From Chrysomallon squamiferum (lineage: Eukaryota > Animalia > Mollusca): a stretch of 64,000 nucleotides of DNA. Below the pieces are notes generated by a model. It was not told the origin of the DNA. It saw nothing but the letters and a program-made list of their open reading frames with translations, and ran no database searches. Both the position numbers and the translations under genes were made by a program. This document shows positions 30,040 to 61,756 of the stretch, in pieces (the stretch's first letter is position 1; each line of letters starts with the position of its first letter). The stretch spans positions 7,564,001 to 7,628,000 of the forward strand of contig CM022672.1 of the NCBI GenBank assembly GCA_012295275.1, written 5' to 3'.

Positions 30040-30338
30040 CTTAAAATCAGTATCCGTAACAGTTTCATCTGACGTGTTCAAAGTACTGTTTGCTTGAAAA
30101 TTATTGACCGACTGTTCAGACGTGTTCCCTGTGTTAGTGGACTGCTGATCACTGCTTTCTTCTGTTGGGATCTGAATACTTGTACCACCACTATCTACAA
30201 ATGTGTCAGTTTCATCTTTTATTACCACAGAGTCTGGTAAAGGCATTGCTATTTTATCTGATAGATCTGCCGTTGCACGGGGCTCTTCACAAAATGACTC
30301 GGCAGCCAGACTCATTACATAGTTTGCATCAACCTTTT
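30040..30338 (-). CDS. Gene A common coding exon 2: acidic/Ser-Thr linker with VIKDE, ending DFK at a phase-0 donor
   Basis: The acceptor ttgttacag|AA completes a GAA codon from the phase-1 donor. The donor is AAG|gtatgt. The structure parallels gene B exon 2. Confidence 0.78.

Positions 30339-33895: not shown

Positions 33896-33900
<5 letters not shown>
33350..33900 (-). promoter_or_regulatory. Candidate promoter / non-coding first exon of gene A
   Basis: CpG-retaining patch upstream of the 31131 acceptor, with a CCAAT near 33883 and a possible donor (AAAG|gtcag) near 33750. Confidence 0.35.
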
Positions 33901-33944
<44 letters not shown>

Positions 33945-39077: not shown

Positions 39078-39413
39078 TCATCTATGGCTTTTTTCATGTA
39101 ACACCAAACCTTTCTGAGAAGAGAAAGTTTTATCACAAACACGACACTCGAGTCCCCCTGCATGTCCTTTAAGGTGAATAAATAGCTGATATCTGTCATA
39201 GAAGTAGCTTGGACACAAGTGGCAGCGATAGAAGTCACCACTGTGTCGACGTTGATGACGTTTCAGATTGCCAGGCTGGTTGGTCTGATAAGCACACAGA
39301 GAACATTTATGCATCTTTATAACAGCTTTTGAACACGGCCGTCTCTTCCTCCACTCTGCACACCCTCCATCAGAATACTCAGATTCATTGTATGTGTCAT
39401 TGTCTGTCCTTTC
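39078..39413 (-). CDS. Gene B alternative terminal exon B7: three C2H2 fingers
   Basis: Phase-0 acceptor tttttcag|GAA, with 33 open codons before MHKCSLC. Fingers begin CSLC, CHLC and CRVC. Has its own stop. Confidence 0.8.
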   Translation of the reverse strand, partial: ERTDNDTYNESEYSDGGCAEWRKRRPCSKAVIKMHKCSLCAYQTNQPGNLKRHQRRHSGDFYRCHLCPSYFYDRYQLFIHLKGHAGGLECRVCDKTFSSQKGLVLHEKSHR

Positions 39414-39831
39414 CTGAAAAACATAAACAGTTTGAAATAATTAATTCTATGTATGATGTAGACAGTGGATGCTTCAGTTTATCTTCTCTGTTAACATACT
39501 GTTGAACAATAGTGTAAAAGGATACTCTCAACAGTCCTCTACACAGATTCTACTTGAACAAAATAATCATCTTGAAAGAATTAATTGTAATTTCCACCTT
39601 GTCAAGAAGACAAGTGTTTTACATGTTTTGTATCTATATCCATCTGTATCTATCTATATCTGTCTATATAAACACACACACACACCTAATATACCACAGC
39701 TAACTTAACCAGTATTAGTTCTTCAAGTCTACTATGACTAAACAATAGAAAACTTGATTAAACTTCGTACACTTCATGATCAATTATTCTTGTACTTGAA
39801 GAATGTTCATTCACCAAGTTATTCATCTAGA

Positions 39832-39865
<34 letters not shown>

Positions 39866-40374
39866 ACTTCAAATCTATCTTGAATCATGTCCATATTGCC
39901 ATTCAAACTATTTAATGGAGTTGATCCGTATTCACATATACACACTCATCCACCTTTCTGTCTTCTACTACCTCTCTGTAATTTTTATCACTACACCAGT
40001 AATCTGTAAAAAGAAAATTTCTTTTTGTGACTTTTATATTGTAATGAAAAGAGAAAAAACAAAAAAACAAACTGAATAATTTTAATGTCAAAAATATTTT
40101 ACACTTTTGTTATTTTGTTTTTGATTACAAAGGATGTACAAAAGATTAATTTAAAATATATATATATATATTTTTTTAAGTGAACATTATTTTGTTAATT
40201 GTTTTTGTTTTTGTAAGAGAGAACACTGTGCATGCACTGTGTTTATGTAATTGTGTGTGTTTACCTGTATCCACATTTTTAAATTTTGATAAATTTCATT
40301 ACAAAAATATATATTGATAGTCATAACAGTTCATTTATATAAATTTGATACTGAATTGACAACACACAAGACAT

Positions 40375-40998
40375 TTATTTGTGCAAGTGTGACTTTTTGT
40401 GCTTGGCTAAACCATCATATGACACAAACAGCTTTCCACAAAATTCACAGGCCAGTTTGGAAAAATGAAGTTTCAGATGTTTCTTCAGCCGATAGGCATC
40501 AGAAAAGTGACAAGGACAGAGGTGGCAGTTAAAAAAGTCACCACTGTGGATTCGCTGATGACGTCTGAGGTTGTGAAAGTAGGATGTGTGGTAAGAACAC
40601 TGACTACACTGGTAACAGTTTTCACTTCTCTGAGAATTAAACTTGACACTGTTACCCGCAGATACATATTTCACATTTGTGGAAGATTTGGTCCCAAACA
40701 GATTTTCATGCATGATATTCTCTTGTGTTTGCGTCATGAAGCCTTCAGAAGTCTGATCAGACACATTGGTTTGTCCAGTCAATTGGCCATGGACATCGTT
40801 GCAACCAGCTATGTCACTAGTAACTCTTTGATGTCCTGTGATTTTGAAGTTAGAACTACCACTTGTATAAAAACCAGGATCTAATCTAGTGACATCATCA
40901 TGGTTCTGCATCTTCCTTTCCTGATCCTGTTGAAACTGCATGGATGATTTCATGTCTTCACTATTCTTGTACACTGATCTTTGATCCCGTACACATTT
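40375..40998 (-). CDS. Gene B alternative terminal exon B6: three C2H2 fingers
   Basis: Phase-0 acceptor ctgctttctag|AAA. Fingers begin CSQC, CHLC and CEFC. The stop overlaps an AATAAA. Confidence 0.8.
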   Translation of the reverse strand, partial: KCVRDQRSVYKNSEDMKSSMQFQQDQERKMQNHDDVTRLDPGFYTSGSSNFKITGHQRVTSDIAGCNDVHGQLTGQTNVSDQTSEGFMTQTQENIMHENLFGTKSSTNVKYVSAGNSVKFNSQRSENCYQCSQCSYHTSYFHNLRRHQRIHSGDFFNCHLCPCHFSDAYRLKKHLKLHFSKLACEFCGKLFVSYDGLAKHKKSHLHK

Positions 40999-41554
40999 CT
41001 AGAAAGCAGAAACAATACATTGACTATTTTGATAGCAAACCATCTGAGAACAACATACAAAATAACTATTATGTAATGTTAAGAAAAATGCTTTTAGTAA
41101 ATTTCGACTGCAGACAATCTCACTGATATTTCTAGGAGACTTTGCCATGCACCATAATCAGAGATTCTGCAGTTTATACCAGTTATCACAATAAAAAAAA
41201 TATATAACTGTACATTTATAATTGTACACTGAGTGTATGTATGTAATGATGGATGGACGGATGTATGTATGTAAGCATGTATAGGTATGTATGAATGTAT
41301 AGATGTATCATTAATAATTAGCTAATTAATAAAAATATGTATATAACAGTGTTTATTATCTTCAATTCATATCAAAACTGTATTTGTCTTCAAACAGGAC
41401 ATAATATTTACACTTGGTCTGTCATGTTGAGTTTAACAACATGTAACAACATGATTGTCATGCATTTACTGTTTCTAACCCACTGCAGGTTTCATTGTAA
41501 TAATAACAGCTTTTAAATGTAAGTAGGCCAATAAGAATCACTGCAACATGTAGT

Positions 41555-41810
41555 CTGTTGAGAGTACATAAAACTATACCATGTCACGAGATACACTGCT
41601 ATGAAGTATTTTGTTGTGAATTCATAAAACCATACCAAACTGTGAGGTACATTGCTATGTTGTGTTATGTTGAGAGTACACTAAACTGTACAGTACCATT
41701 AGATACCCTGATGTGAAGTGTTATACTATACCAAATCATGAAATACACTGGTATGAAATGTTATGTTGAGAGTACACTAAACTGTACCATGCCACAAGAT
41801 ACACTGCTAC
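41555..41810. repeat. Degenerate minisatellite, ~45-50-bp unit
   Basis: Recurring gttgagagtaca(c)taaact.tacca...agatacactg(c)tatgaa. Confidence 0.65.
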
Positions 41811-43054
41811 TTTGACTTATGAAGTGTGAATTTGGGAACAAGTGCCTTAACATCATCTATAAATTTTAATTCATGAGTGCTAATATTTTATTATTAGTTT
41901 GGATACTGGCTTTCTGAATTTCTTCTTTAAAATGTGGTACTACAAAACTGGCATTCATGCACACTGGCACACATGCAGATGCATGCACATATGCACAAAC
42001 ACACACAAATTTTCATCTGGTGATTAATATACATAATGTTTTATGAAACCAATTTATTTATACAACGACAGAATAAAAGATGTTATAACAAAAAAACAAA
42101 ATACAATTGTACTGAAGTTCTTATTTAATACAATAAATATTTCACTTATCAACAACAAAAAAAAAGTAATTAATAAAAAATCAAATTATGATAAAACACA
42201 AACATATTTACATCTCAAAACACTTTTAAAGGACATGTTATCTCAGCATATAAAAAGGAATTGACTGTATCTACATTTATGCTAAAAATCTCAGAATAAA
42301 TTCTGAATAACATTACATATTTTCATTTACCTTCAATAAAGAACAGACAATTGTGAAGTAGTTACAAATGGATAGATACTTGATAGACAATTTGAAATTT
42401 TGTTATCTTAGCAATGGTGCACAAAAAGGTAATACATAAAAAAAAATACAAATAAATAAGAATAAAAATATTTTTAAAAATCTCTAGATATAAAAAAAAA
42501 AATTAACAAATGTAATATTAAAAATCTATAAAAAAATAATTTAAAAAATGTACAAAAATTTCTGAATGAATCACGTATGGGCTATATAAGCTTCCCGGCA
42601 ATTAATTACCAAATGAAAGAAAATGTTTATTTTGTTATTCATACATGTATACAGATTAATGTGTTATATTATGTGACTGATGTTCCTGTTTGACAATTAT
42701 CTTCTGTAATTGTCTAAGATCTACATTTCAGCTTATTTTGTTTTGATTATTTAATAATAAAGCTGAATTTTCCATTTTCATGTTTTTTACAGCATAAGCT
42801 CCATTCACCAAGTAACTGCAAAGCAGTACAAGTGAACACATTTTAAAAAATAACAAACTTGTGAACATTTTCACAAACATTACCGAATTATCTTTGAAAA
42901 TTACTGCACTGATAATTTTGTATAAAAATAAACAAAGATACAAAAAAAAATTCACAAAAGTTAATGGCTACTTATGATTTTATCTTGTTGAACAGCCCTA
43001 GATGTTACTGAATTTTGTGGGTTTTTAAATGTTTTTATTTTAAAATTTTATTTC

Positions 43055-43289
43055 CAATTTGTCACTAAATCTGTTTGATTTTTATGTTATATTCAAACTG
43101 TCAGTGAATCTGTGCCATTTTTATCTCCAAACTGTCAATGGATTTTTGCGTTTTTTTCGTATCTCCAAACTGTCACCAAATTTTTTGTGATTTTTATCTT
43201 ATCTCCAAATTGTCACTGAGTCTTTGTGATTTTTATTTAATCTCTTTGTTGTTATGAAGTCTGTGACTCTCTGTGATGTGATTTTAATC
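43055..43289. repeat. Degenerate ~35-40-bp minisatellite immediately 3' of the exon B5 stop
   Basis: Recurring atctccaaactgtca.tga.t.t.tg.gattttta, about six copies. Confidence 0.65.
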
Positions 43290-43646
43290 TTATGTCCTAC
43301 TCATCATTGCCTCGTGATTTTTCTCATGTCTTTTCAGTGATTCATCAGTGCTGTACTTTTTCCCACAGAATCGACACGTAGGTGTGTTGATGTGAACCTT
43401 CAGATGCTTCATAAGTCTGTGTTTGTCTGAGAAGTGACACCTACACAGGTGACAGTGAAAGAAATCTCCTGTGTGTATTCGTTTGTGTCTTTTCATAGCA
43501 TGCTGGTAAATAGTCTGATAATTACACGAGTCACAGAAGTACATCCTCTTGCCAGACTGTGAAACCATTCTCCTTTTCATAATCCGCATTTCTCGTTCTT
43601 GTCTCCTCCTATAGTTCACCACTTGTAACACACCAACACTGTCATG
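43290..43646 (-). CDS. Gene B alternative terminal exon B5: basic stretch plus three C2H2 fingers
   Basis: Phase-0 acceptor attttttag|CAT. Fingers begin CDSC, CHLC and CRFC. Has its own stop. Confidence 0.8.
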   Translation of the reverse strand, partial: HDSVGVLQVVNYRRRQEREMRIMKRRMVSQSGKRMYFCDSCNYQTIYQHAMKRHKRIHTGDFFHCHLCRCHFSDKHRLMKHLKVHINTPTCRFCGKKYSTDESLKRHEKNHEAMMSRT

Positions 43647-44856
43647 CTAAAAAATAAAATTTGTTCTAAATAAATATACTGAATTTTTTTAATTTTAATT
43701 ATTATTTTTTTTTTTTAAAGTTTTGTAGGTTTTACCGAGTCTGTGGGTATATGAAGGGATTTGGGTGTAGTAGATCAAGATGTATCTTCTAATTTAGTTT
43801 TTTTTTTCTTCTTATTAAAAAAAACTTTTGTTGTGGCTAATTTTCAAGTTATGAATATAACATATTTTTTTCAAATCAGTTTTGTAAAAAAAAAAAAAAA
43901 AAAAAAAGGTTACAAAATGAAGAAGTGAATAACCATTTACATATATATTTATACATTAATTCACAGAACCACTTTAAATTTAATTTTAACACAACATTAT
44001 GCTCTGAGTTGACTAAGTTGTAGGAGAAACAAGTCACATTTTGTGTCCTAGATTACCACTGAGAAACAACTGTTTTTAATAATAATTGGTGTTATTAAAT
44101 GTTAGTCATGTCTACAAAGGAATGTTGAAAACACCTTTCTTTTTATGACCATTAACTGGGTGTTGTGAAAGAGACAAGACAAAGTGATCAAAACACCAGC
44201 AGTTTTTACAAAGCATGTTCTTTTGCTCTCTCTCTCTCTCTTTCTCTTGCAGTCATTCTTTTTCTATTTCTGTCTCTATTATCTCAAACAAACATACACA
44301 GAATTTTTTCAGAGGAAACCTACTATATTTTCCCTATATTTTTTATTTTATATAAAAAGATAATTTAATTAATAAAGTTATTTTATTATTTTCATTCACA
44401 GCCTGTTCTAACAAATTCGACAAACTCAAACTCAATAAAATCATCATTCACACTTCTAGACATATATATTTAGATTTTATGAACCAGTTTCAACAACGAG
44501 GATGATAACATTTTTTTATCTCACAGTACTTCAAACTGAGTCCATTTACTGGGCAAAAATATAAAACATTTAAAAAAAAAAAAAAAACTGAAGAAGAAAA
44601 AAAAGTGAAAGAAAAATTTGACATATCTCAGGTATTAATTTTCAATAAATATTTTATATTTATACAGATATCTTATAAAGTAATTGCATTAATGTCATTC
44701 AGTGAAATATTTAAGAATAACAAACAGCAGACTATCATTCAAATGAGTCCAGAACATCTGAAATGTCTGTTACCAATTCCATAACAGCTAGCTACAGAAA
44801 TCGTGCACTAGTTAAGTTAGGTTAACTGAACCTGTCAAACTAACAGCTCCGCTAGG

Positions 44857-45288
44857 CTATCTAAATCCCATTCTATGTTTGCTCATGTGAGAATTTAGTC
44901 CACTCATAGACTGACACTGTTTAAAACAGATCTTGCACTTCAGTTCCCCAACATGGCCTTTAAGGTGTCCCTGAAGCTCATAATTGTTGATAAAACTTCT
45001 ATGACAGAGGTGACAAGGAAACCGTTCTCCAGTATGCACACGTCTGTGTCGAATGAGATTGTATTTGAGCTTTGTTTGGTAACAACATTCACTACACTTC
45101 AAAATTTCACTGTCCTCAGCTTTCTTTTCACCTGTCCGCTGCTCTTGTCTGATCCAAGAGGGAACCGGTTTTGACCGAGATCCTCTATTTCCCAGCATCC
45201 CTGATTTAGAAACAGTCTGATTATATTTTCTGAAATCTGACACAAGATTCTGTAGCATGTCCATGGCATCGCCTCCCATCATGGAACT
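44857..45288 (-). CDS. Gene B alternative terminal exon B4: three C2H2 fingers
   Basis: Phase-0 acceptor ttgttttgtag|AGT. Fingers begin CSEC, CHLC and CKIC. Has its own stop. Confidence 0.8.
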   Translation of the reverse strand, partial: SSMMGGDAMDMLQNLVSDFRKYNQTVSKSGMLGNRGSRSKPVPSWIRQEQRTGEKKAEDSEILKCSECCYQTKLKYNLIRHRRVHTGERFPCHLCHRSFINNYELQGHLKGHVGELKCKICFKQCQSMSGLNSHMSKHRMGFR

Positions 45289-46256
45289 CTACAAAACAAA
45301 ATGTATTGCTGTTTAGACTTATGAAGCACTGTCTGGTTCCACCATTTCACTGGCCACTCAATTCAGATCACGTTCGACAAACCTGCTACATTAATCAGTG
45401 GTATGTAAACAAAGTTTCTGAATTGATTTCACTGTATGAGAACAAAAAATCAAATGAATTTTATTTTGGAATAATTATGTTTTATATTAAAAAAAAAAAA
45501 AAAAGAAAAAAAGATAAAATTAAAATTAAATTAAATTAAAAAAAAGAAAAGAAAAATTTAGATTTTCCCTGTAAATTATTTTGTCACACACAATTTGTAT
45601 TTTTTTTTTTTTTCTATTTAAATATTTTTATCTCTTGTCACTGAAATAAATTAAAATAAGTGTTAAAGTGTTTTACAAAACCACATTTCATGGCTTGTAT
45701 TTGCTTTGATATGAACCGATTTTTCTATACTACTGGTATGTTGCAACGTATTCTTTATGATATTCAGTTTAAAAAATTATCACAAAAAGAAAACCATTTT
45801 AAACCACAGACTTTTAAAACAAATTTAATACCAAAATTCAAACAATTAATTCAGTCAGAACAGCTGCAGTAGAACTATAATATAGACAACTTTTTTTTTT
45901 TTTAAACCTCTGAAAACTAACAGCTCTTTATTCAGAATATATATTCAGAAGTTCTGCCATCACATACAAAAATAAAATTCAAAAACAAAATATATATTTC
46001 TTTTTAAAACAATCTTTTAGCACAACTCAAATAAACCATGTGTATTCAACAAGCAGTTTTTAAATTAATTTAACATTCAGAACCAAAATATCACCAGAAT
46101 AAAATATACAGGAGATATATTGCTGCAGTCAACATTTAAAAACATTCTCTCTCTTCATTCTGATCATTTGTGCATATCACAATTTAGAAAAGTATTATGT
46201 ATAAACGATATGTTATTTTTTCCAGTTTAATTTTTCCTATAATGTTGTTTTAACTT

Positions 46257-46733
46257 TCAGCTCTTCAGAATGTGATTTTTGCAGTGATGCTTGACGTGAC
46301 AGTCTAGGCCATGTTTAGATGTAAACTGCTTAAAACAGAACTGACACTTCAGTTTTCCTTCATGTCCCTTCAGATGCAGTCTGAGATGATGTGAGTCACA
46401 GAAGTGACAGGGACACAAGTGACACTTGAAAAAGTCACCACTATGAATTCGCTGATGGCGTTTCAGATTCCCCAGCTGTTTGCTCTCATATGCACAATGA
46501 TCACATTTGTAAACTTTCTGAAAGAAATGTAGATCTCCATGATTCTCTGTTTCTTCAGACTGCCTCACAGAACTAGCAACATGACATCCAGAACTACTGA
46601 AAACATTTCTTTTATCACAAGCTTCGTTAGAGCCCAATGTTGATGAAAAGCTCCTGTCCGGAAAGTTGTGTTTTTGAAGAAGAGGACCTAATCCATTCTG
46701 TGCACTCTGATAGACCATGGCAACATTAGTTTG
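46257..46733 (-). CDS. Gene B alternative terminal exon B3: three C2H2 fingers
   Basis: Phase-0 acceptor tttttctag|CAA. Fingers begin CDHC, CHLC and CQFC. Has its own stop. Confidence 0.8.
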   Translation of the reverse strand, partial: QTNVAMVYQSAQNGLGPLLQKHNFPDRSFSSTLGSNEACDKRNVFSSSGCHVASSVRQSEETENHGDLHFFQKVYKCDHCAYESKQLGNLKRHQRIHSGDFFKCHLCPCHFCDSHHLRLHLKGHEGKLKCQFCFKQFTSKHGLDCHVKHHCKNHILKS

Positions 46734-48477
46734 CTAGAAAAATAAATGAACATTTCATTGTAGTCTTTCAAAACTCCAGCTGAAACCAAGTTTGAAGAAT
46801 AAAATGCATGCATTTTCTTTTCAATATGTAGATTCTTTTCTTCTTTGTTTTTCTTTTTTCTTCTTATAGAATATTACTCTTTATTTTTGAAAAAAAAAAA
46901 AAAAATTTTTTACAGAGGTGGGAAGTAAATTTTGTGCCTATAAATTTAATCATCTTTTGTAAGTCATGAACTCAGATCAGCTTTAAAATATTAAGTAATG
47001 TACAAAAAAAAAAAAAAAAAAAAAAGTGTAATTAATAAATAAAAATAAAATAATAAACTTCATTTCTGTCAATATCTTAGTATTTCATATGATAGTTAAA
47101 GCTGAGAATTACGACCTTCCAAAAATAAATAATGTTCAAAGAAACATCATCAGTGATCATTGTTAGTATTAGGACAAAACAAACAGCTTTGTAAAATAAC
47201 TTTATTTTCTGGTCAAATTATTTAATGTTATTTAATAATAATTTGTGTGGGAGTTTTAAGTTTTCAAGTGCATGTCAAATTTAAACTAACATATAGAATC
47301 ACAAAACTGGTGGTAATCACTTATGTATAATACATCTGTCTGTAAAACAGTGATTTATATACATAGTCTGATAACCTATTAATCCTAATAAAATATTAAA
47401 TATTATTATGAAAATATACAACCCACCCACCCCTCCAAAAAAAAAAAAAAAAAGAGAGAGAAAAAAAGTGTTTAGACACATATAGCATATGATGAATATT
47501 CAATACATTTTTATTCCAAGTATGTACATTTATATTCCATTAAAGTATTATCATTGGTGTCATGTATTTTGAATTTATGAACTTTTGAATTTATTAGTTT
47601 AAAAAAAAAAAAAAAAGAAAAATGTATTAATAATACTAATAATAAATAATCAAATAAAAATATTTTGCTTTGATCAGCTGTATTTTAACAAATCATCCAC
47701 TGTTCCATAACACTGAAATGAACACAAATCATTTTTGAAATTTTGATTCATGTAAAAAAAGTTTATGCACTGAGGTTTTTGCACACAACTAATGCATACT
47801 TATTTTCACATATACATCTATTAATCAAAAACAAAAGATATGATGAATTTTGCATTTTATCATAAATATCAAAGGAAATAAAAGGAAATAATAATAAAAC
47901 AAAAGACAAATTATCACTTCTGACCTTTTCAGTAACATAAAAACCCATCACCAATGAAACATTTTCCAAAACAATTAAACCATATATATCTGTCTTGACT
48001 GAAAGTAAGTTCTATTCTTTGTCAACCATGGGTAAGCAAAATACACACACTACTATATGATGCTACTAAATAAATAAATAATTAATAATAATAATAATAT
48101 TAACAGAGATAAATTAAACAGACATAAAAGAAAATAATGCATATTTAAAATATGATATTGCCAACAATTATAAAATTTCAATCATCTAAATTTTTATCAC
48201 ATATTTCAATTAGGCATTAAATTTGAAGTAATATTTATTTGAATATTTTATTTTAATATATTCTTTTATTATTTATTACTTTCTATGATATCGACAGATC
48301 ATTTAATATGTTTTGATTATTTATCTAAACAAGTTCACAGTAATTCTCACATAAATGTGCTGACTAGATCTTGTTTTAAAAGACCTAATTTACTGAAGAA
48401 TAAGGCACCAGACTTCAGAGTATGAAGTAAAACATATTTCTCCACTTTACAAATGAAATGTATAAAATTTTCATTTA

Positions 48478-48876
48478 TTAATCACTGGGAAAATCCTCAA
48501 AGTTCTCATTTGTTAAATTAATGTGACTTTTCAGATGATATTTCAATTGGTAGTTGTCTATGTAGGTTTTATCACAGTGTGGACATTTTAGCCTGTCACC
48601 GGTGTGAATTCGCATGTGTCTTGTCAAATTATAGTTCCTGCTGGCTTCATAACCACAAATGTAACATTTGAAGATTTTACATGCAGAGTAGTGGCCATCT
48701 CCTTTACTAAAGTAGTTAGCAGAGCTGAAAGCTGACTGACTGGCCTCAGACATTACACCTTCAATTCCTTTCTTTCGTAAGCCTAATTCCCTATCTGCAG
48801 TACACTTTGAAAACAACTTGGAGTGAGCAGGCAGTGGGTTACGTTCCACTGGAAGCAGACACTGGGTCTTCTGGCT
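48478..48876 (-). CDS. Gene B alternative terminal exon B2: two C2H2 fingers
   Basis: Phase-0 acceptor attttctag|AGC. Fingers CYICGYEASRNYNLTRHMRIH and CPHCDKTYIDNYQLKYHLKSH. Has its own stop. Confidence 0.8.
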   Translation of the reverse strand, partial: SQKTQCLLPVERNPLPAHSKLFSKCTADRELGLRKKGIEGVMSEASQSAFSSANYFSKGDGHYSACKIFKCYICGYEASRNYNLTRHMRIHTGDRLKCPHCDKTYIDNYQLKYHLKSHINLTNENFEDFPSD

Positions 48877-50032
48877 CTAGAAAATACAAAAGATGCTAGT
48901 GTTCAGGGATCTATAGTTACATGTTAAGTTAAAGGATTGAGAAAAAAAGGGAACTGTTGAGTTCACATTTTCTTTTCATTTTTTGTTTTGTTTTATGTTT
49001 CAGTCTATGTCATGTTAATGTTCATAAGGAAAAAGCCAGCCATTAGATAATTTAAGACAAATGGTGGAAGTCTTAAAGGGACAGTGCTTATTAAAACAAT
49101 GAACAACAAAAACAAAATAAAGTAATGAATGCATGATAAAGATTGCATCCTGAACATTCTAAAAATAAAAATAATTTAAAGTCTTTTGACATCTATGCTT
49201 GTATATATTGATATTTTCCATGTATCCACGAAGGTGACACAGACTTGATATGTGAAAAATAAATTAACAAATGTTATATGTTACAAATCAGAGATCCAAG
49301 CAGACTGTATAAAAGTTTGTACAATCAATTCACTGCACAGTATTCCAGCCACACCCTTCAGTAACTTCTCATTATGATCCATGTTAGTATCCATAAGAAT
49401 ATATTTTATTACATGCAGTAATTTAGTCCTTGTTAGCACCATAACAGCATGATTCAGTGAAAAGCACTGCCTCTGACCTGACTTTTCAAACTCAAATCAA
49501 TTCTCAGTGTTTTGTATTTATATTCTTAATCTTATATATAATACCATTTACTTATATATTTATCATTAACTCTACCCTCTTACATGTATCACAGACTGAA
49601 CTGAAATAATGCTGTTTACAAATATATATAAATGTTTTGAGAGCCCTATGAACCAAATGTTTAACACAAAGATTTTCAAGAGTTTAAAGTTACAGCATTT
49701 CATAACATATATTAAACTATTACTGCTCTTGATGGCAAGTATTCTGTATTTTTAGTTGAAAGACTTGTGCAAAAAATTATTCCAAACAATAATGGCTGTA
49801 TAATTTTTACCAATGCTTTTTATACAAAACTTTCCAATCTACTTTAACCCTAGTTAACATGTGTGGCTCACAGCACTTCTCACTGGCATCATACAGGTTG
49901 AGATTTCAGCCTGCAATACTAACAGCAGTTCCAAAGTGAAAATCATGCCATGCCATTAAGCATCCTGAATACATTGACAGAAGTTTAAAAATGTTTTCTT
50001 TTTTCTTTTTGAAATTGTCTTCTCTCCAGTAA

Positions 50033-50434
50033 TTAATTATTTACTGCAGTCCTGTCAGGAATACAAGTTTGTTGTGAACCTGTCTCTTGAGAAAAGTGCT
50101 CATTCACACACAATGGCAGTGAGACTCGGTTATGACTTTTCATGTGATATTTCAACTTGTAGTTGTCGATGAATGTTTTGTCACAGAAACAACACTTGAA
50201 TCTTTCACCTGTGTGTGTGCGCATGTGTCTGATGAGATTATAGTTTCGTTTTGCTTCATACCCACAAAGATCACACCTGTACACCTTCAAGGTGCAGCAC
50301 TGAAAGAGGGAAGCATTACAGAGGATGGAACTGGTCTGTCCTCGGAACATAGACAGTGGGTCAGGGCTTCGCTGTGAAAGCCAGTCAAAGTCAGAAGTGT
50401 GAGCTTTGTGTTTCACTGTCTTCATCTTCAGAGT
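50033..50434 (-). CDS. Gene B alternative terminal exon B1: two C2H2 fingers
   Basis: Phase-0 acceptor tttttctag|ACT. Fingers CDLCGYEAKRNYNLIRHMRTH and CCFCDKTFIDNYKLKYHMKSH. Has its own stop. Confidence 0.8.
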   Translation of the reverse strand, partial: TLKMKTVKHKAHTSDFDWLSQRSPDPLSMFRGQTSSILCNASLFQCCTLKVYRCDLCGYEAKRNYNLIRHMRTHTGERFKCCFCDKTFIDNYKLKYHMKSHNRVSLPLCVNEHFSQETGSQQTCIPDRTAVNN

Positions 50435-50872
50435 CTAGAAAAAAACAAAAGACTTGGGTTGTTTTATCCATAGCCAAGTATCCTCACTGTGGGTTAATTA
50501 GTTAACAACAGTTCTTTTTATCAGATAGACACTCCTCACTGACAGATTTATGCTGTAAACTGAAAACGCTTTGCTTTTTTTAATATTTTATTTTATATAT
50601 ATATATATATTACAAAACCAGTTAATAACTACTGAAAATATGGAAAACTGGATAACACTAGTTGACTAATATTACTACTACTTTAAATAAAACATGATGC
50701 AAATAGGTAAAATGAGAAAATAATTATTTAATCCAAATATCTTTTTGTTAAATTAAAAACGTGTCTGAGTAATTTTTCTTAATTACTGCAGAGGTTACAA
50801 CCTGTTCTAATAACTGACTTTGAAAGTTTGTCAACAGGAAAATATTAAAACAATTTTTAAGGCAAATTGGAT

Positions 50873-53810
50873 AGTTATGAAAATTTAAATATTTTCATTC
50901 GGTTTGTGTAAATAATTTGCATTTATAACACTGTCAGTGAATGTAATAAAACAGTATTACAGTTTTTTTAAAGATATGTAATGAATTCGCTATGTTAATG
51001 TGCATGTACATTTGCATACATGCTTATCAGTATAAATATTAATATTTTTAAAAGGTATGGTATGTACGTTTTAAAACATTTTCCCATACATTATATTTAT
51101 AATCTCTATATAATGACAAATTTATATTATAAAAATCTCTCATATAAATTTTTGTTTAAAAAAAAAAAAAGCATAATTATATACAAACTATATATCAAGT
51201 CATTAAACTAGAAAAGTGATGTTGATAAGAAACTCTTTACATTTACAGTAATTCTAAAAGAAAATCTTTTTTCGTAATATATTAAACAATTATTAAATCA
51301 TTTATTCAAAGATTACACTTTTTTTACATTGTCTGGAATTCTAAAATCAGCAATATTGTAATTATATATAAACCCATCTATACCTTTACAAAACCATTTA
51401 ATGTCTAAGGTTTTAATTATTAAATAGAATTCTGACAGTACTTAAGGAAATAAACAAAGATGTTATCATTGTGTTATTAATTTCCTCCAGCCTGCAGAAA
51501 GTGAACTGTTTATAAGACTCTACAGGAGAGATTTTCTAAAACAAAATGGTATTAAATTAAAGATATAATCATGATATACTCTTTACATACAAACATTTTA
51601 CAACTGAACAATTTCAATGGTTGAAGTGGTAAGAATGAAACATAGATACCAAAACCTCATACCAAAATAAAATTAGTTCATCCAACTTCAACATGTCCAC
51701 TGAGACTTCACACTATAACTGGATCTGTTATGATCTGTCATCTTTTCATGTTTATCATTTTTCATTTTTGATATTTTATGTTTTAAAAGAGATCATTTTT
51801 TCATTGCTCCTATGGTTTCAACTATGTTTTGGGGTGATTTGGGGCGTTTGGGATTTTTAAATTTTATTTTTATAATTTCAATTTCTTTGACTGCTTACTT
51901 AACAATAGACTCTTACATCATCATGGAGCTTTAGTCTTGCACTGGTACTTCTATCCTTCTTGCACAGTATTCAACCATTCACCAATGCCAAATGGTACAT
52001 GGATATATAGCTTTTTTTAACTCTTCAGTATTGTAAGATTTGATTCCTTATAAAGAAATATTCTTAAATGTTGTAGTGAATTCACTGAAAATATACATCT
52101 GTTGTTGTAGTCAGTGACTATCACCAGCTTCTCTGTCTTGGAAGATAACTTGTCCTGTCCATTACAGAAAAACACTTGCTTTAATTATGTTATTGCTCAG
52201 AATATTGCTGAATGCTGGATTTTTATTCAGAATTTTTTTGTTGTAACTTGTATTATGTAAATCACAATACAATCAAAACTTGCATTAAGAATATTTCTGC
52301 CAATGAATCAGATCAATTGTGTCCACACTGCAAGCAGAACCAGTTATGAAAATTTAAATATTTTCATTCAGTTTGTGTAAATAATTTGCATTTATAACAC
52401 TGTCAGTGAATGTAATAAAACAGTATTACAGTTTTTTTAAAGATATGTAATGAATTCGCTATGTTAATGTGCATGTACATTTGCATACATGCTTATCAGT
52501 ATAAATATTAATATTTTTAAAAGGTATGGTATGTACGTTTTAAAACATTTTCCCATACATTATATTTATAATCTCTATATAATGACAAATTTATATTATA
52601 AAAATCTCTCATATACATTTTTGTTTAAAAAAAAAAAAAGCATAATTATATACAAACTATATATCAAGTCATTAAACTAGAAAAGTGATGTTGATAAGAA
52701 ACTCTTTACATTTACAGTAATTCTAAAAGAAAATCTTTTTTCGTAATATATTAAACAATTATTAAATCATTTATTCAAAGATTACACTTTTTTTACATTG
52801 TCTGGAATTCTAAAATCAGCAATATTGTAATTATATATAAACCCATCTATACCTTTACAAAACCATTTAATGTCTAAGGTTTTAATTATTAAATAGAATT
52901 CTGACAGTACTTAAGGAAATAAACAAAGATGTTATCATTGTGTTATTAATTTCCTCCAGCCTGCAGAAAGTGAACTGTTTATAAGACTCTACAGGAGAGA
53001 TTTTCTAAAACAAAATGGTATTAAATTAAAGATATAATCATGATATACTCTTTACATACAAACATTTTACAACTGAACAATTTCAATGGTTGAAGTGGTA
53101 AGAATGAAACATAGATACCAAAACCTCATACCAAAATAAAATTAGTTCATCCAACTTCAACATGTCCACTGAGACTTCACACTATAACTGGATCTGTTAT
53201 GATCTGTCATCTTTTCATGTTTATCATTTTTCATTTTTGATATTTTATGTTTTAAAAGAGATCATTTTTTCATTGCTCCTATGGTTTCAACTATGTTTTG
53301 GGGTGATTTGGGGCGTTTGGGATTTTTAAATTTTATTTTTATAATTTCAATTTCTTTGACTGCTTACTTAACAATAGACTCTTACATCATCATGGAGCTT
53401 TAGTCTTGCACTGGTACTTCTATCCTTCTTGCACAGTATTCAACCATTCACCAATGCCAAATGGTACATGGATATATAGCTTTTTTTAACTCTTCAGTAT
53501 TGTAAGATTTGATTCCTTATAAAGAAATATTCTTAAATGTTGTAGTGAATTCACTGAAAATATACATCTGTTGTTGTAGTCAGTGACTATCACCAGCTTC
53601 TCTGTCTTGGAAGATAACTTGTCCTGTCCATTACAGAAAAACACTTGCTTTAATTATGTTATTGCTCAGAATATTGCTGAATGCTGGATTTTTATTCAGA
53701 ATTTTTTTGTTGTAACTTGTATTATGTAAATCACAATACAATCAAAACTTGCATTAAGAATATTTCTGCCAATGAATCAGATCAATTGTGTCCACACTGC
53801 AAGCAGAACC
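50873..53810. repeat. Near-identical direct tandem duplication, unit 1469 bp (50873-52341 and 52342-53810)
   Basis: The text is identical at a 1469-bp offset, as are ORFs 51020 and 52489 apart from one residue. I noticed only about two substitutions. Confidence 0.95.
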
Positions 53811-56459
53811 ACCTGCTATTAATATAAAATAATTACAAATATATCCAGGGGTCCAGTTTTGTATTAGCATCAAAATATATTTTATGCCATTTCTTTTTTC
53901 TTTATTTTCCTTTTCTCTCCAATTAGCTTTCTGTTCCTTCATTTTTTTCCAAAGCTTTTCTTTGATTTTTAAAAAATATTTTTTGGTATGATGTTTTCTT
54001 CTTTTCCATCCAATTCTTTTTATCTGTTTTTTATTACATTAAAAAAATCCCTCTTCAGAGATTTTGTATTCTGGCATTTCCAAGCTTCAAGTTTCTCTTC
54101 CAGACAATTTTTATCTCTGCTGCTCTTAATCTTTCATTTTTGAATGTAGTGTGCTTTTGCTTAGACATACGTAATTAGGACAGTTATTTGATAAATATGT
54201 TTTTAATAATGACTATGTGTAGAGGTGAGCTATAGTTAAACACTTGTCATTTTTAGGAAAAGAAATAAAGAACAGGGACACTGAAGTTTAAACAGAGAAT
54301 GTTCTTCTCTTTGTGAAGAAAATGGGCTTTTTTCTGGGGGTTTTGTTCTTTTTTTATGTCACATCTGAAAGTTTCTTTATTTTTCACTGTTCTTTGGTAA
54401 GAAATATAAATCAAATTCTGTAGTAATGAAACATCAGGGCAAAGAAAGTAAGAAAGATTATTATATGTAAACTGTGTGCAAAGATCAGTTGAGATGAAAT
54501 GTGTTACACAAAACAGTAGTCTTGGAGATGTTGCATAATCAACTCTGAAATGCATGTTAGCAAAAAATAAAAATAAAATACAAAATAATAAAAATTTTAT
54601 AAAAAAAATTTTAAACCCTCTTTTTCTCTCTCAGTACAATGCAGGTGAAACCAAAAACAGATGAGAAACTAGCAGACAAAACTGAAATACAGCTTAAAGT
54701 ACATCAAATCAGAATCTGGCATAGCAAACAACTGTGTATTCAAAATTGGCTTCTTTATTTTTTATTTTTGGCAGCATTGATTTCAAAAGTTTACTGAAGT
54801 CCATACAATAACAAAAATAAAAATAAAATAAAAATTTAGAAAAGTAAAATGTTTCACATTACTTCCATAGTTAAAAAGGAAAAAACATTTTTCTTACTAC
54901 CTTCTAAATCTTAGAAATTTACATAGCAAAAGTCATAGTGTAATGCTGTTTTTGAATATTCTTATTTCCACATCAAAATAAATTAAAATGAAACATGTCA
55001 GAAAGATCTACAAACAATGTTTGTTCAAAACAGGTAAACAAAACAACAAGTTTCATTCAACAAATATTTCATCAGTTAAACTGAAGTAAAATCAATAAAA
55101 CATTTTAGTTTTAACATGAACTCATACTGCATGGGGATAAAACAGGGATTATGGGTTCACCATTTAAGTATAAATATATGTATAATTTCTGAATAGTGAC
55201 TACATAATCTTTCACTGTATGTTAGTGCTGATACCACAGACTCAGCAAATATTCCTACAGTATTTAGTAATAGATGATTACTCTATAATACTCAAGTAAT
55301 CAGTTCTGAAATATGTTTACTCTCGCCTATTCATATTGCCCTGTCTTATCAGATTACAATGATATACAAACAATAATTAAATACAGTAAGGCACATAATG
55401 GATACTGCAATCTTACAAAAATAGGTTCACAAATAATTAAAAGAAAATCTAACAATATGTTTAAATAACTGGAAGCAAACTTTTTTCTATATGTTTGTCA
55501 AATAAAAGATTAAACTGAAACACTTAGTTTACTTGTAACATCCAGCACCATTCTTGGTGGAGTTTTTTAATTTTCATTATGATTTTATTCAGAGTGGTCG
55601 GGTTCTCATTATTTTTTCATGTAGGCCAGTACTGGAGAGATGTCTAAAACATCTATTATTTATTGTTCAGAGGTGTTTAGCATAAATGTGCACCAATCAT
55701 TACTCTACTTTTATAACTTAATAATTTGGTTGTGCACTACAAGTAAAATTGAAGCTGTGCAAATGATGAAATATACAATATGGATGACATTACCACTTTT
55801 CAGTTAATTATTCTTCATAAATTCATGTTCCGTTTCAGATCTTTGTCTTCTTTTAAGCAAAACTTTACTTGTCAAGTATGTTTATTTGTAAAGATATTTG
55901 TTAAATTTCTATATGTAAAATGTGGCATCATAAATATATTTTTCAATTTATGAAAAGGATTCATTCCAAGTTACTATATTATTTAACTGTAGGCAATAAT
56001 TTATTATTTTTGTTAAATGTGTTTGTATGTTCTACAGCAAACAAAATAAGGAAATGGCCAGAAAATAATAAAAAGCAAACAAAATAACAGAAACTCTAGT
56101 TTCTTTAAAGTTAATCTGAATGATTTATTGCTATACAAAGTATATAATTAAAAAATTAAGAGGGATAAAACTTCAGCAAGAACAATATTGTTGGATTATC
56201 ACAACCATTTGGAATGGGTTTTTTGTTTGTATGTTGTGGAAGGTGATGTTTTTAAACACTGGGGAAGTTTCACATAGGATTCAGAACTGCCAGATATTTC
56301 AGTTTGCAGATAGTTATACAGAAATTATCTTTTAATAAAATATGTTAACAGTCATTCATTCACTCAGTTCTTGTACAGATTAGAAATATTTTTATAATTT
56401 TTATAATATTTATTTGCTTTGATGATTGTGAAAAATTATTAGTAAATTTTAAATCTTAA

Positions 56460-57097
56460 ATATACCATTAATCCATTCCAGCCCCTGGAAAACCACCCCA
56501 TTTTTTGTAACATGTTCTTAAATAAGAAAAATGTATTTATAAATGACAATTATTGTATAAAAAAAAAAATAAAAAGAATGTAAATAAATAAATTGGTTTT
56601 GTAAAGTGTATTCATCTTGGAGATTAGACAAATATTTTAATGCCTTTGGCTGGAGTTTTAGCCTTTATCAACTCCTGCTTCAGTATGGTACAATTCAGAG
56701 AAGTATTACATTTCTACTGCCTAGCCAAGTCGACTACATGCACACCTCACTTATGTTTTTCTATGATTTCATGCTTTATTTCAATGGATATCATCCATTT
56801 CTCAACACTGTCCTTTGCACTCACTTTCTTATGATCCATGGTTAGAAAAAAGAAATTTGGCAAAATACTGCACAAAAGGCGAGCACAACACAACAGAGAT
56901 GCTTCAACGGTGATAAACACATGATGTAAACGAGTGATATGCAGGATGCTGGGCAGTTGCTGTGTTGTTTGTTGTGCCAACTAGCAGCAGCATATCTTAA
57001 GCTTGGTCATCTCTTGGATTTTGGCTGCAACTCAAAGCAAAAAATCAACTGGGCGAATGTTTGTAACTCAGAAAACTTGTAAGTTGAAGTACCATTG
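56460..57097. mobile_element. Second, 5'-truncated and diverged copy of the same pogo/Tigger-like element
   Basis: It shares blocks with 1910-2509 (ataccattaatcc, ctgtcctttgcactcactttctta, gcaactcaaagcaaaaaat) and ends gtaccattg|ta. Confidence 0.7.
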
Positions 57098-57901
57098 TAT
57101 GTGGAAAAGGAAGTGCAAGTGGACTGAACAAAAATTTACGTATCACTGAGTATGTATGGTAATTAAAATCCAGTGAAATAATTCATATCTGAAACTGTTA
57201 AACATTGAACAAAATATATTTAATTTGATTGCACACCCACTTACCATTAAAATTCTAGCCAGTATCATATATTTATTGTCTTTAAATATGATTATTCAGC
57301 TGAACACTACAAAAATTCCTTTATTCATGACTCTCATCTCTACCATTTCATTTTCAACAATCAAGACATTTTTTCAAATACAAGAACATCTCAACATTTT
57401 TTGCACTGAATCAGTCAGGTAGGTAAGTGAAATATTTACATGCTAATGCATATATGTTGCAGTCACTCTTTTTGACTAAAGCCACAGTGTGAGCCTGTGT
57501 CAGAAAAAGGTAGAAGATGAAGACAGGTAATACATAATCTCATCAGATGATCTTTTACACTTTGAATTTACAGTTTTATTTCTTCTTACATCTGTATTAA
57601 AACAAAATATGTTATCTACAGATTTCTTCAAAGAAAAAAAGTTTGGTTTGTGGACTTCCAATGATCTCTTCACGCTGTGAAGAGAGAATGAATTTTGAAA
57701 TAGCAAGGTCAGTGATAGATGTGGGAAGTAAGTTCACTGTGCTACAAGATAAATAAAGTGAACGATGAGTAAGAATGTAAATGCCTGTAAGAAAATGCTG
57801 TTTACCACTTTCACAATCATGATTATAGTATCTGGCAGCTCTGAACATCACCAGTGACACTATTTTCTATGAAGTCAAGAATCTTTAAAACTAAAAATTA
57901 C

Positions 57902-58290
57902 CTTTAATTCTATGCTGCCACTGTTTTCTTCTCCTTCATGTCTCTGGCCATCAGAAAAAGAAGTATTCAGATGACTCTCCACATTAGCACCAGATGTGTT
58001 CAATGCTGAACAGCTTGTTACAGTAACATTTCCAGTACCATTATCTGGTCCGTCTATAAACATAATGTCATCATCCTCATCATTATCTTCTTCTTTTATA
58101 CTCAAGGGAAGGCGAATTGTTTCTGAATGTGAGCCTTCTGACTCTGTGATACAAGAATTGTTTGAACTTTGTGCATTAGTCTGCACAACATTGGTGCTAA
58201 TGTTGCTAACTGGAGTGAACTCTGAATTTTCCAAATTGGACACACTGGTTGCTGCAGCATATAACACATCAAGATCATTTGCTGTTTTCT
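57902..58290 (-). CDS. Gene B common coding exon 2: acidic linker (SIKEEDNDEDDDIMFID), ending ELK at a phase-0 donor
   Basis: The acceptor ttttaactatag|AG completes GAG. Length 389 nt. The donor is AAG|gtaatt. Confidence 0.8.
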
Positions 58291-58863
58291 CTATAGTTAA
58301 AAACAAAAAGAATAATTGCAATTTAAAATAATTTTTAAATTTATCATTGTGAAGTCATGAAGAAATTACAAGCTCACAACCAGTGACATTTATTCTTAAT
58401 CCCAATTTAAAAAAGAAGCACATAATTACTGAACACATAAAGCAAGGAACTCAACCAAACAATGATCAAATTAAGAAATATTATATAATGAATTATGATT
58501 TGTATTGTTTACTGTGTACATTGTTTGGTTTGGTTTATCTGTATCATATATTTCTATAAACATCATCACTAAAAGTTTGTTAATCGAGATGAAGAACTTT
58601 TGTACTTAAATATACAAACAAAAATAGATGTAAATTTATGAGAATAGTATGCTAACTGAATTATTATTGTGTATTAATATAATTCTGTTACATAACAGAT
58701 TCTTAAAAAAATAAAAATATAAGCATTATTTTATTTTAAAAAATATGGCACTAATCTATTAAATATCAAAAGGCACTATCAGTGGTTTTAATTAGAAGAA
58801 AATAACGTTCCTTTTGATGTAACAATATCAGAATTTTATTTGCTTAATTTTTTTTATAATTAC

Positions 58864-59482
58864 CTTTAATCTGATCTGAATCTGTCACATCATCCTTCAC
58901 ATAATTTGAAACTAAAGATTCATTTCCTAATGCTGAAAAATGTTCAGATGTTGAAAGAACGGATTCTTCTGTTGTACTGTATGTCATTGTCATGGTTGGT
59001 CGAGCCTGGATCTCGTACGGTTGAGCATTTTTAGTAAGTGAAGCTTGAGTAAATGAAGAAGGAATTACCCTCTTGTTCTGAATCAAGTTCCTTTTCCTTC
59101 CAGGAGGTGAAAGATAATGTCGCTGAGGACCAAACCGACGCCGTATACCTATATGAGATGAAATGTCCTGAGAGGGTGGACTGGGAATATTTCTGTCAAA
59201 GTTATTACTGCTTTCTTTAAGGACACTTTCAATAGTTGGTGATTTTCTAGGGTTTCTCTGCACAGTTTTAAAAGCTTTAGTACAATAACTCTCACTAATG
59301 ACATCACCCATACTGGTGATCATCTCACTGAGCACATATCTCTCTTTCTTAAAATTGTCTATCTCCAGGTTGAGGTAGCCACTCAGCTCAATTGCCTGGT
59401 CGAATTCAAGAAACTCTCGACAACATTTCTGTATTGACTCCACTAATGACGTGAAAAACTGCACAGAGTATTGTTTTTCCAT
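58864..59482 (-). CDS. Gene B common coding exon 1: conserved unassigned N-terminal domain (MEKQYSVQFF...ESYCTKAFKTV) plus linker
   Basis: The exon begins at 59512 after tttttcag. An in-frame TAA upstream fixes ATG 59482 as the start. The donor is phase 1 (AAA G|gtaat). Confidence 0.82.
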
Positions 59483-60070
59483 TTTATTTTTTTACTGTGC
59501 TGATTGTGGTAACTGAAAAAAGAAAATTTAATTATGTGTATCTTGATGGTTACAAAATGGCTAAATTCCAATACATTCAATTTTTTTATGCCTAAAATAT
59601 GCTTTCAAATTATGTTCCCAACTTCATTTCACAACACTAAAATGACTGCAACTAAAACTACTTAGTAACAAATACAATCTTATGCCTCTACAGTTAATCA
59701 AGATATTACTGAAATGTAAATAATTTTAGAAAATCTGAAGTCTAATTTTTTTTTTTTTAAATAAAAAATCAACACATTACTGTTAACAGCTGTTGTATCT
59801 AGACAGTTCTGAACTGCAATTGGCATGTACAGCCCACCTAATTTAACTTACAATCAAACATTTTGTTTTCCATCTAATGTTTTAAATATTATTTTGGGTT
59901 ATATATAAACAAATCCAATTTTATATTTGCCTGTATTCTGTCAAATGAATGGTACATGTATAGTGATATCTGGGTCTAAGCCATTTTATATCTGTGAACA
60001 TGTAAAAGGGCAAAAACTATCTACCAATAAATCTGTCAAATTATTTGAATTATATATATATATATATATA

Positions 60071-60222: not shown

Positions 60223-61259
60223 AAAACCAAATAAAATTAAAATTCTATTATATTTCTAACTAACCACTCTTGCGAGTAGTTGATTCATACATAATGACTT
60301 TAATCAAAACAAAATAGTTCTCCAATAATAATAAAAACAATTTATTTGTAATTTTTTAAATCAAAACTATTTAAAAATATGGTCTTTTAAGATCTAAACT
60401 TGCAATTAAAAACTAAAAAAGTAAATCTCTCTCTCTCTATATATGTATATTACATATTTTATAAGTATAATCAAATAACTTTCAAGTAGTTAAAGCTTCA
60501 AAATCTCAAAATTTATACTTATGTGTATGTGTGTGTATATATATATATATGTAAATAAAAAAAAAAAAAAAAAAAAAAGAAGAAAGAAAGGAAAAGGTGG
60601 TGTTGGTAGCGCTGACTGGTATTTAAGGTAACAGTTTTGAATAATGACATCATAAAACTATTGCACCTTCAGAAGAATTCTCAATCTTAATGAATGTCCA
60701 TTGTGTTTGATATTTATCTTTAACCCATGAAAATAAAAATGTCTCCACATTTTTACAGTGATCTAAACCGATTTTCTGATTCTGTTTCATTACTTATACA
60801 TATAAATCCATTTTATTGGAAAAAATAATTCTCTATATACTTAAAGCCGAAAAGTTAATTAAAAATGGGTTAGTTTCAACTTTCAGAAATTCCATACACT
60901 GATACAGTGATACATACATCTAAAAAGGTTCAGTTAAAATTCGTCGGCTAACACTTTTTATTTGATAATTATTTTATTTCGTTAGCTACTATATATTAAA
61001 ATATTTAATTGTGGCTGAAATCCTGTGGGTCAAACTTACAGAGAGCAGTATTTTTCTGGGTCGGAATTGATCGAAAAATAATTATGAATTTATACGACTA
61101 TATATCAGGGTTAGGGCGTATTAAAAAAATTATTATAATAATTTATTTTGACATTAAAAGAAAAAAGAGACACAAAATCAACAAAATACAGACGCATAAC
61201 TATAAATTAGAGTCTAAAATCAGATGAACATTTTAAAAAGATAGTAAATAAGTAATAGT

Positions 61260-61620
61260 ATAATACCTGTTGACAAACGAGAAATACTCAAAAAGCATAC
61301 GTCATATAATGTACTTATATTTTAAGCATAATGAAAGTAGGCTTGCCTTTTTAAAACTAACATTTATGTGACTTATCAAAGTTAAAAAGGTAACAGCGAT
61401 ACGTACACAGGATGATCGAGAATCAATAAAAACTGTTACATCGTCTACAAATTTACAACCATTTGTCTTTTTCCCATTTTTACGAAATCGACTGGTTATC
61501 GGATTCGATGCGCTTTTTCTGACACGTTCCTTTCGATTATTGGCGTAACTTTTGAGCAGGTGAACACACGCTTCATCGTGTCTGATGTAAACTGTGTGAT
61601 GTGACATGATTAATAATAAT
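61260..61620 (-). promoter_or_regulatory. Candidate promoter / non-coding first exon of gene B
   Basis: CpG-rich patch upstream of the 59512 acceptor, with a possible donor (CAACAG|gtatta) near 61267 and an ATTGG near 61538. Confidence 0.35.
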
Positions 61621-61724
61621 AATAACGTTTACGTTTTTGAAATTATTATTTGAACAGACTGATAATTTAATTATATTATCGGTTTTATCTCTACTACCGC
61701 ATTAAACTGTTGCTTTATTATAAT

Positions 61725-61756
<32 letters not shown>

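Follow-up and report, generated by a model that had tools for sequence, protein, structure and literature searches.

Whether a single molluscan gene can fit many different DNA-binding ends to one constant N-terminus, as the Drosophila genes lola and mod(mdg4) do, is the question raised by a 64,000-nucleotide stretch of the Chrysomallon squamiferum genome (GenBank assembly GCA_012295275.1, contig CM022672.1, positions 7,564,001 to 7,628,000 of the forward strand), referred to here as the window. A preliminary description had placed on its minus strand two constant exons that end at a shared donor, followed by seven exons that encode C2H2 zinc fingers. Here, we describe the analysis of this gene (gene 1, 39078-59512), of a second family member in the window (gene 2, 31110-27454) and of the gene family itself, the latter two being absent from that description. 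The feature is real and conserved, and represents a gastropod transcription-factor family in which interchangeable last exons supply DNA-binding ends to an unnamed domain. For gene 1, it is probable that a single gene splices its two constant exons from one donor to alternative zinc-finger last exons to yield seven predicted transcription factors, with one last exon likely chosen per transcript.

The proposed exon coordinates, the phase of the donor and the seven phase-0 acceptors, each with its own stop codon, all hold at every coordinate (Table 1). From its ATG, the first constant exon contributes 619 nucleotides (nt) (59482-58864, phase 1) and the second 389 nt (58290-57902), giving an open frame of 336 amino acids (aa) that ends at the shared phase-0 donor AAG/GTAATT. 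All seven last exons (A to G) open, at the higher of their two coordinates, behind a pyrimidine-rich tract and YAG, and all seven match Pfam zf-C2H2, as expected from the earlier reading; together with the constant part they predict products of 447-543 aa. The last-exon frames begin at the acceptor, since an in-frame stop directly precedes six of the seven exons, and a GTRAG donor is absent inside 6/7. G+C content is 40-43% in the exons vs 28% in the intron. As a control for chance, every pyrimidine tract followed by YAG and at least 90 open codons, in any phase, was collected between 38,000 and 57,800 on both strands, yielding nine sites on the minus strand (the seven phase-0 acceptors and two sites within exons B and D) and one on the plus strand. 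Further last exons were sought in the window with all of the tails retrieved, and only the non-finger exon of gene 2 was significant. The exon that carries the ATG itself opens at an acceptor (59512), and therefore an upstream non-coding exon exists; in RNA contigs, the sequence extends past the ATG exon by about 30 and 76 letters.

Constant exons were found in five public sequencing runs, four of which are recorded as RNA (runs X1 to X4). Contigs of these four runs were mapped over 48400-58399, a stretch that covers donor 57902 and, of the seven acceptors, those of A and B, and 24 of 72 loose contig ends were examined. Joining of donor 57902 to more than one acceptor had been set beforehand as the test of the gene, and two different joins were found. 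Run X4 contains a joint between 57902 and 48876 (exon B) on the minus strand, with GT..AG ends, a depth of 2.7 and 28 letters on its short side (the other 7 of 8 joints listed fall in intron repeats). In run X1, a 1680-nt contig leaves donor 57902 with 30 loose letters that are exactly 43617-43646, the start of exon E, and that match nowhere else in the window. The join between the two constant exons is seen in an X4 loose end that matches 58866-58895, the end of exon 1. A contig of run X2 continues for 200 letters (not listed) beyond the donor, and one of run X3 ends 10 nt before it.

The N-terminal head of gene 1 finds its best matches in Gigantopelta aegis, a vent snail, whose proteins match it at 91% identity (68/75 aa). 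The G. aegis orthologue, RefSeq LOC121382774, has eight isoforms (X1 to X8) with 369 aa in common that split at the residue matching donor 57902, and seven of the eight tails pair one-to-one with exons A to G. RefSeq models this gene as one locus, contrary to the expectation that annotation would break it into single-exon zinc-finger genes. A finger-core tree was built from 51 cores with two or three fingers (the window's eight and 43 from five G. aegis genes; 79 columns), in which exons C, D, E, F and G join their own partners with support of 97/90 to 100/99, exon A joins its partner with 91/85, and a clade that unites A and B with both of their partners has 99/97. Contact residues separate A from B, with DYKY in A and its partner P0090 and DYQY in B and its partner P0006. 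Tails in this tree cluster by gene beyond shuffled labels, and the array may have grown by local exon duplication, with A/B and E/F as sister exons.

The array sought in a related genome is thus present, and its fingers are far better kept than its linkers: identity between the window and G. aegis is 72-91% over finger cores vs 19-49% over linkers, and the base-contact positions (-1, 2, 3 and 6 of 19 fingers) are identical in 70/76 cases. To give an idea of the time scale and no more, the searched text of PMC7736800 places the divergence of the two peltospirid snails with sequenced genomes 66.3 million years ago. Conservation of fingers over linkers is the pattern of purifying selection on distinct surfaces predicted to read DNA, and the seven exons carry seven different base-contact signatures, from which the seven ends would be expected to read different DNA targets. 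The same comparison bears on whether the last exons are decaying duplicates or transposon debris, spliced as noise. As such a reading would have it, contigs are no deeper on exons A and B than on the intron, but all seven frames are intact, the fingers are conserved far above the linkers with their contact positions mostly unchanged, and the finger core of gene 2 is identical to that of G. aegis; decay is largely refuted, and we give it next to no weight.

CpG observed/expected is 0.23 over the 20.4-kb gene body (39078-59512), 0.51 in its top kilobase and 0.07-0.44 in the 600 nt upstream of each acceptor, and CpG-rich patches stand ahead of genes 1 and 2 (Table 1) and likewise ahead of the window's other genes. 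In invertebrate genomes, CpG-depleted bodies with CpG-rich starts are read as a mark of gene-body methylation. No CpG-rich promoter-like patch occurs anywhere in the gene 1 array, which does not by itself exclude weak internal starts, and this agrees with the earlier remark that no finger exon has an evident promoter of its own. The profile fits one promoter and no internal ones, without mapping the start. In the mechanism that we propose, a single promoter near 61-62 kb would transcribe the whole unit, the acceptors would compete in cis for shared donor 57902, with a poly(A) site after each exon, and the transcript would end after the chosen exon, such that each mRNA comprises the head, the linker and one finger set. 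Alternatively, the variable exons of this same anatomy could be transcribed separately and then trans-spliced to the constant exons, as in the two closest functional analogues, lola and mod(mdg4), according to the searched text of PMC11426971; short-read contigs carry no allele phase across the joint, and cis and trans products look alike in them. Since the seven exons lie downstream on the same strand of a 20-kb unit, cis splicing suffices, and given also an array free of CpG-rich patches (weak internal starts still possible), trans-splicing seems to us rather unlikely.

Several points weigh against a single gene that splices to all seven exons. The joins of donor 57902 observed in RNA are two of seven (B and E), each of them supported by a single contig from a single run, the four RNA runs all belong to one study, and no join to exon A was found in their contigs, with acceptor A inside the stretch examined. 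Contigs of low depth are found over the intron as well, in 12-21 of 30 bins per run, and exon cover alone therefore does not show splicing. Poly(A) hexamers within 800 nt after all exons are no evidence, because AATAAA is so frequent at this AT-rich locus (2.3 per kb in the region). The G. aegis isoforms are RefSeq annotation models, which presumably rest on RNA reads; the eighth G. aegis tail (P0001; basic, fingerless) has no counterpart in the window (best E 2.6); and by BLAST exon B scores the partner of A above its own, 110 vs 105 bits.

The claim of at least seven transcription factors from one gene is thus carried by RNA for the joins to B and E, and for the other five by the orthologue, from which we infer them. 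Consistent with these five unseen joins, exons B and E may be the only ones used from donor 57902, the others being independent small genes or exons fed mainly by another upstream exon or by the head of a paralogue. A Met occurs within the first six codons of exons A, C and D, and contigs of runs X3 and X4 match about 90 nt of the exon A finger region (50137-50227) at 95% identity or more, but with non-window flanks. This match comes either from a chimeric contig or from a second gene with a near-identical finger piece, produced by recent duplication or by gene conversion. Against such partial use, a single G. aegis locus supplies isoform partners for all seven exons, the partner of exon A has Thr in place of the early Met, conservation of exon E reaches upstream of its first Met, and the low CpG values given above leave no promoter-like patch ahead of any exon. 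We judge partial use very unlikely, and favor the use of all seven exons from the one donor.

About 75 aa are conserved at the N-terminus of these proteins, followed by a Ser/Thr-rich linker. The N-terminal domain had been called unassigned, and it stays so: no Pfam family, BTB included, matched either constant exon at E ≤0.1, none passes for the 78-aa head, for which no BTB family appeared even at E ≤0.5, PDB sequence searches with the head gave nothing (the matches obtained were to low-complexity linker), and an ESM Atlas search gave no usable match. An AlphaFold2 model based on 112 sequences (alignment good over residues 1-55, with the last strand shifted by a few residues in distant rows) has a predicted local distance difference test score (pLDDT) of 87 and a predicted template modelling score of 0.68, and comprises a helix (5-24), a long hairpin (30-41/45-56) and two short strands. 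A first model from 23 close sequences (pLDDT 51; best Z 3.9 in a fold search) was discarded as poor. With the good model, Foldseek found no matches at E ≤0.001 in the PDB and likewise none in a viral library, and a VIA fold search of 48,161 chains gave a weak list that neither shows nor excludes a fold; its best match (Z 5.0, root-mean-square deviation 3.0, 66 aligned, a pseudopilin) reflects a common helix-on-sheet arrangement, and no BTB entry is among the fold-search matches listed. BTB domains are mainly helical and longer than about 75 aa. Judged by Pfam and by its predicted layout, the head is not a BTB domain, and its shape and position suggest a protein-interaction, probably self-association, module.

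In the remainder of gene 1, exon 2 at 58100-58050 (minus) encodes IKEE, an acidic run and then IMFID, a stretch that the G. aegis orthologue retains and of which traces occur in the paralogues, and that we take to resemble a SUMO site beside a SUMO-interacting motif. In the large intron, a stretch of about 240 nt spotted by eye occurs as a direct-orientation duplicate at 53800-53560 and 52340-52100, and RNA contigs pile up very deeply on a repeat at 56400-57050 (mean word depth up to 349), tangled and with numerous short joints; this repeat is probably a transcribed multi-copy element.

Gene 2 begins with the same head as gene 1 and has the same intron phases, phase 1 and then phase 0, followed by two alternative last exons (Table 1). 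Its G. aegis orthologue, LOC121384214 (P0065/P0066), has two isoforms that match both last exons: 179/269 aligned aa of the constant part are identical to P0065 (isoform X1), to which the finger core is likewise identical, and the fingerless exon is 52% identical over 85 aa to the tail of P0066 (isoform X2; E 2e-20).

Table 1. Coordinates of the features of genes 1 and 2 in the window. Identity of finger cores and tree support refer to the G. aegis orthologue of gene 1; o/e, CpG observed/expected.
Feature	Position	Strand	Description
Candidate promoter or first non-coding exon region, gene 1	61001..62000	-	Putative; CpG-rich patch, o/e 1.32
Gene 1 constant ATG exon	58864..59512	-	ATG at 59482; 75-aa head at 59482-59258, then start of Ser/Thr-rich linker; phase-1 donor
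Gene 1 last constant exon	57902..58290	-	Shared phase-0 donor 57902; RNA contig cover in 4/4 runs
Alternative last exon A	50033..50434	-	133 aa, 2 C2H2; orthologue P0090 (isoform X2), core 40/50 identical
Alternative last exon B	48478..48876	-	132 aa, 2 C2H2; RNA joint; orthologue P0006 (isoform X3), core 42/50
Alternative last exon C	46257..46733	-	158 aa, 3 C2H2; orthologue P0004 (isoform X4), core 64/77; tree 100/99
Alternative last exon D	44857..45288	-	143 aa, 3 C2H2; orthologue P0003 (isoform X5), core 69/76; tree 97/90
Alternative last exon E	43290..43646	-	118 aa, 3 C2H2; RNA contig end; orthologue P0002 (isoform X6), core 61/76
Alternative last exon F	40375..40998	-	207 aa, 3 C2H2; orthologue P0007 (isoform X1), core 55/76; tree 100/97
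Alternative last exon G	39078..39413	-	111 aa, 3 C2H2; orthologue P0005 (isoform X7), core 66/76; tree 100/98
Candidate promoter, gene 2	33001..34000	-	Putative; CpG-rich patch, o/e 1.14
Gene 2 first coding exon	30579..31110	-	ATG at 31110; same head, 68% identical over 78 aa; phase-1 donor
Gene 2 last constant exon	30040..30338	-	Phase-0 donor AAG/GTATGT; constant part 277 aa
Gene 2 fingerless alternative last exon	28760..29035	-	91 aa, basic, no Pfam family at cut-off
Gene 2 finger alternative last exon	27454..27927	-	157 aa, 3 C2H2

The description of gene 1 as a lola-like array stands, although the gene is not a one-off: it is a small member of a multi-gene family that has non-zinc-finger ends too. 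Based on 152 proteins retrieved, all counts being lower bounds, G. aegis has at least 19 family genes, of which at least 14 have alternative ends with 2-20 isoforms each; these at least 14 genes account for at least 147 proteins and at least 145 distinct ends, at least 112 of them with C2H2 fingers, and the other tails include Psq helix-turn-helix (HTH), BEN and DUF3504 domains (the last in paralogues P0063 and P0172). One protein cluster of the family holds 25 members. All of the G. aegis family genes retrieved are recorded on a contig of one and the same length, 91.7 Mb, and the family is therefore probably on one chromosome; it may have grown by whole-gene duplication.

A profile search with the head over 1.84 billion representatives returned 257 proteins at E ≤0.001. 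The best 150 of these 257 include 10 sets with matching starts, nine of which share 257-388 aa and then differ in their ends, which carry C2H2, Psq, FLYWCH, Tc5 and piggyBac-type finger domains. Ten distant matches were looked up; six are named, all from gastropods (Pomacea, Babylonia, Nucella twice, Batillaria and Lottia), and four are unnamed. Pomacea canaliculata LOC112564035, with an isoform X26, is among the distant matches, and every named relative of the head is from a gastropod. In Haliotis (abalone), DUF3504 occurs in 20/21 named head matches and the 'isoforms' at three loci differ from their first residues on, without shared-head and alternative-end sets. These loci argue against a shared-head design throughout the family. 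These RefSeq one-locus 'isoforms' (P0191/P0074/P0178, P0194/P0077/P0076 and P0202/P0075), each with its own head and DUF3504, may represent tandem genes with a common non-coding first exon. Among 42-137-aa proteins, 0/59 candidates were homologues, and the only locus from a metagenome scan (L001) was rejected as a chance match in a bacterial outer-membrane-type gene. RefSeq already contains models of the family's isoforms, but names them misleadingly, for example 'zinc finger and BTB domain-containing-like'; no description of the family or of the head domain was found in the literature searched, which takes in few subscription papers, and genome-paper supplements, not covered, could hold a mention.

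Individual relatives show further arrangements. The three isoforms of G. aegis LOC121383256 (P0171-P0173; also P0039) split at residue 367 into ends with DUF3504, C2H2 or no assigned domain, exactly where a paralogue continues into its DUF3504 region, which hints at a Crypton-derived gene that gained its alternative ends behind one of its introns. A nested choice is seen in G. aegis LOC121383032 (P0181-P0220) and in P0055/P0128/P0130, in which many isoforms have the start of a BEN-type tail in common and differ only in its final piece, about the size of one helix. In P0259 (Lottia), P0268, P0297 and P0334, the head lies about 95-115 residues into proteins of 1,600-1,770 aa; P0259 has transposase-type HTH matches and the UniRef name Vertnin.

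In the searched text of PMC11426971, lola has 20 isoforms, 17 of them with different C-terminal C2H2 fingers, on a BTB of the Tramtrack (TTK) type, mod(mdg4) has at least 30 isoforms, mostly with FLYWCH, tails of the TTK-BTB group are C2H2, Psq/HTH and FLYWCH, isoforms of this group usually carry one or two C2H2 fingers, and TTK-type BTB was found only in arthropods by a search that included Mollusca. Like lola, gene 1 joins a constant N-terminus to one of many alternative 3' exons with short C2H2 sets, of two or three fingers per exon, similarly short to those of the TTK group. Like mod(mdg4) and the TTK-BTB group, the snail family uses C2H2, Psq HTH and FLYWCH tails, to which it adds BEN and, unlike them, DUF3504, Tc5/CENP-B and piggyBac-type finger tails in its relatives. 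Unlike lola, the snail genes have a head without BTB or any Pfam family, predicted to form one helix and a beta-hairpin, and in G. aegis at least 14 paralogous genes follow this design; unlike the TTK-group genes, the named relatives of the head are from gastropods and not from arthropods. The TTK BTB forms hexamers, whereas self-association of the snail head is a prediction. The snail genes work like lola and mod(mdg4) but are not members of their group, from which they differ in both the defining domain and the taxon. The preliminary description had called the array analogous to lola and probably of independent origin, which is supported: since the head is not BTB, independent origin fits, and the head would play in the snail genes the part that the TTK BTB plays in lola, in a design that would have arisen independently of the arthropod genes.

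Two other systems share parts of this design. The two isoforms of vertebrate KIAA1958 each have a Crypton-derived DUF3504 domain of their own, encoded on separate exons, according to the searched text of PMC3212892. Paralogues with the snail head similarly place alternative transposon-derived C-terminal domains behind a shared front, and the alternation of DUF3504, C2H2 and an unassigned tail at the one G. aegis locus LOC121383256 is of the same type; unlike KIAA1958, with its two ends only, the window has no DUF3504 in its nine last exons or in its constant exons. KRAB and FiNZ, the latter a 28-aa acidic domain unique to cyprinid fish, define lineage-specific expansions of zinc-finger genes with an accessory domain, and splicing is not mentioned in the searched text of that source (bioRxiv 10.1101/2022.11.29.518450). 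The snail genes likewise combine a lineage-specific N-terminal domain with variable C2H2 modules in an expanded, clustered family; KRAB/FiNZ-type families diversify mainly by whole-gene duplication and have long finger arrays, whereas the snail ends have two or three fingers, owe their variety to alternative last exons and keep a one-to-one correspondence between species. SCAN and ZAD mark further lineage-specific zinc-finger families with accessory domains, and no Pfam family that would indicate KRAB, SCAN, ZAD or FiNZ membership passes for the snail head.

Elsewhere in the window, an ADP-ribosylglycohydrolase gene lies at 1548-6172 (plus), and behind it, at 9421-11381, several of its exons recur nearly unchanged as a partial or second copy. 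Behind gene 2 and on its strand, 19325-19567 (minus) is an exon of a pentatricopeptide-repeat gene, and a CpG-rich patch lies at 25-27 kb. A fragment at 35253-35672 (minus), between genes 1 and 2, has a weak DUF4371 match (E 0.003) and is probably a relic of a hAT-type transposase.

A wider reading of these genes, which we offer tentatively and regard as possible though still somewhat doubtful, is that gastropods independently evolved a combinatorial transcription-factor system, in which chromosome-clustered genes with a helix-hairpin oligomerisation head would each draw, through last-exon choice, on as many as 25 or more modules that bind DNA (C2H2, Psq, BEN, FLYWCH and transposase-derived), and the head would bring isoforms and paralogues together in mixed complexes; such a system would be a complete functional counterpart of the TTK-BTB system on a new fold. 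That a lola-like design, with an almost matching set of DNA-binding tails, is found on an unrelated, unnamed domain points to convergent evolution of regulatory architecture, and its scale exceeds that of the arthropod design: the proteins retrieved from one species show at least 145 distinct ends for 14 genes. The snail head defines a new domain family that is open to structural and partner tests, and the compact 20-kb locus of gene 1, with seven conserved ends on the same strand, is a simple place to study last-exon choice and the need for trans-splicing. Along with the many ends that single genes of this family carry, gene counts understate the transcription-factor repertoire of molluscs.

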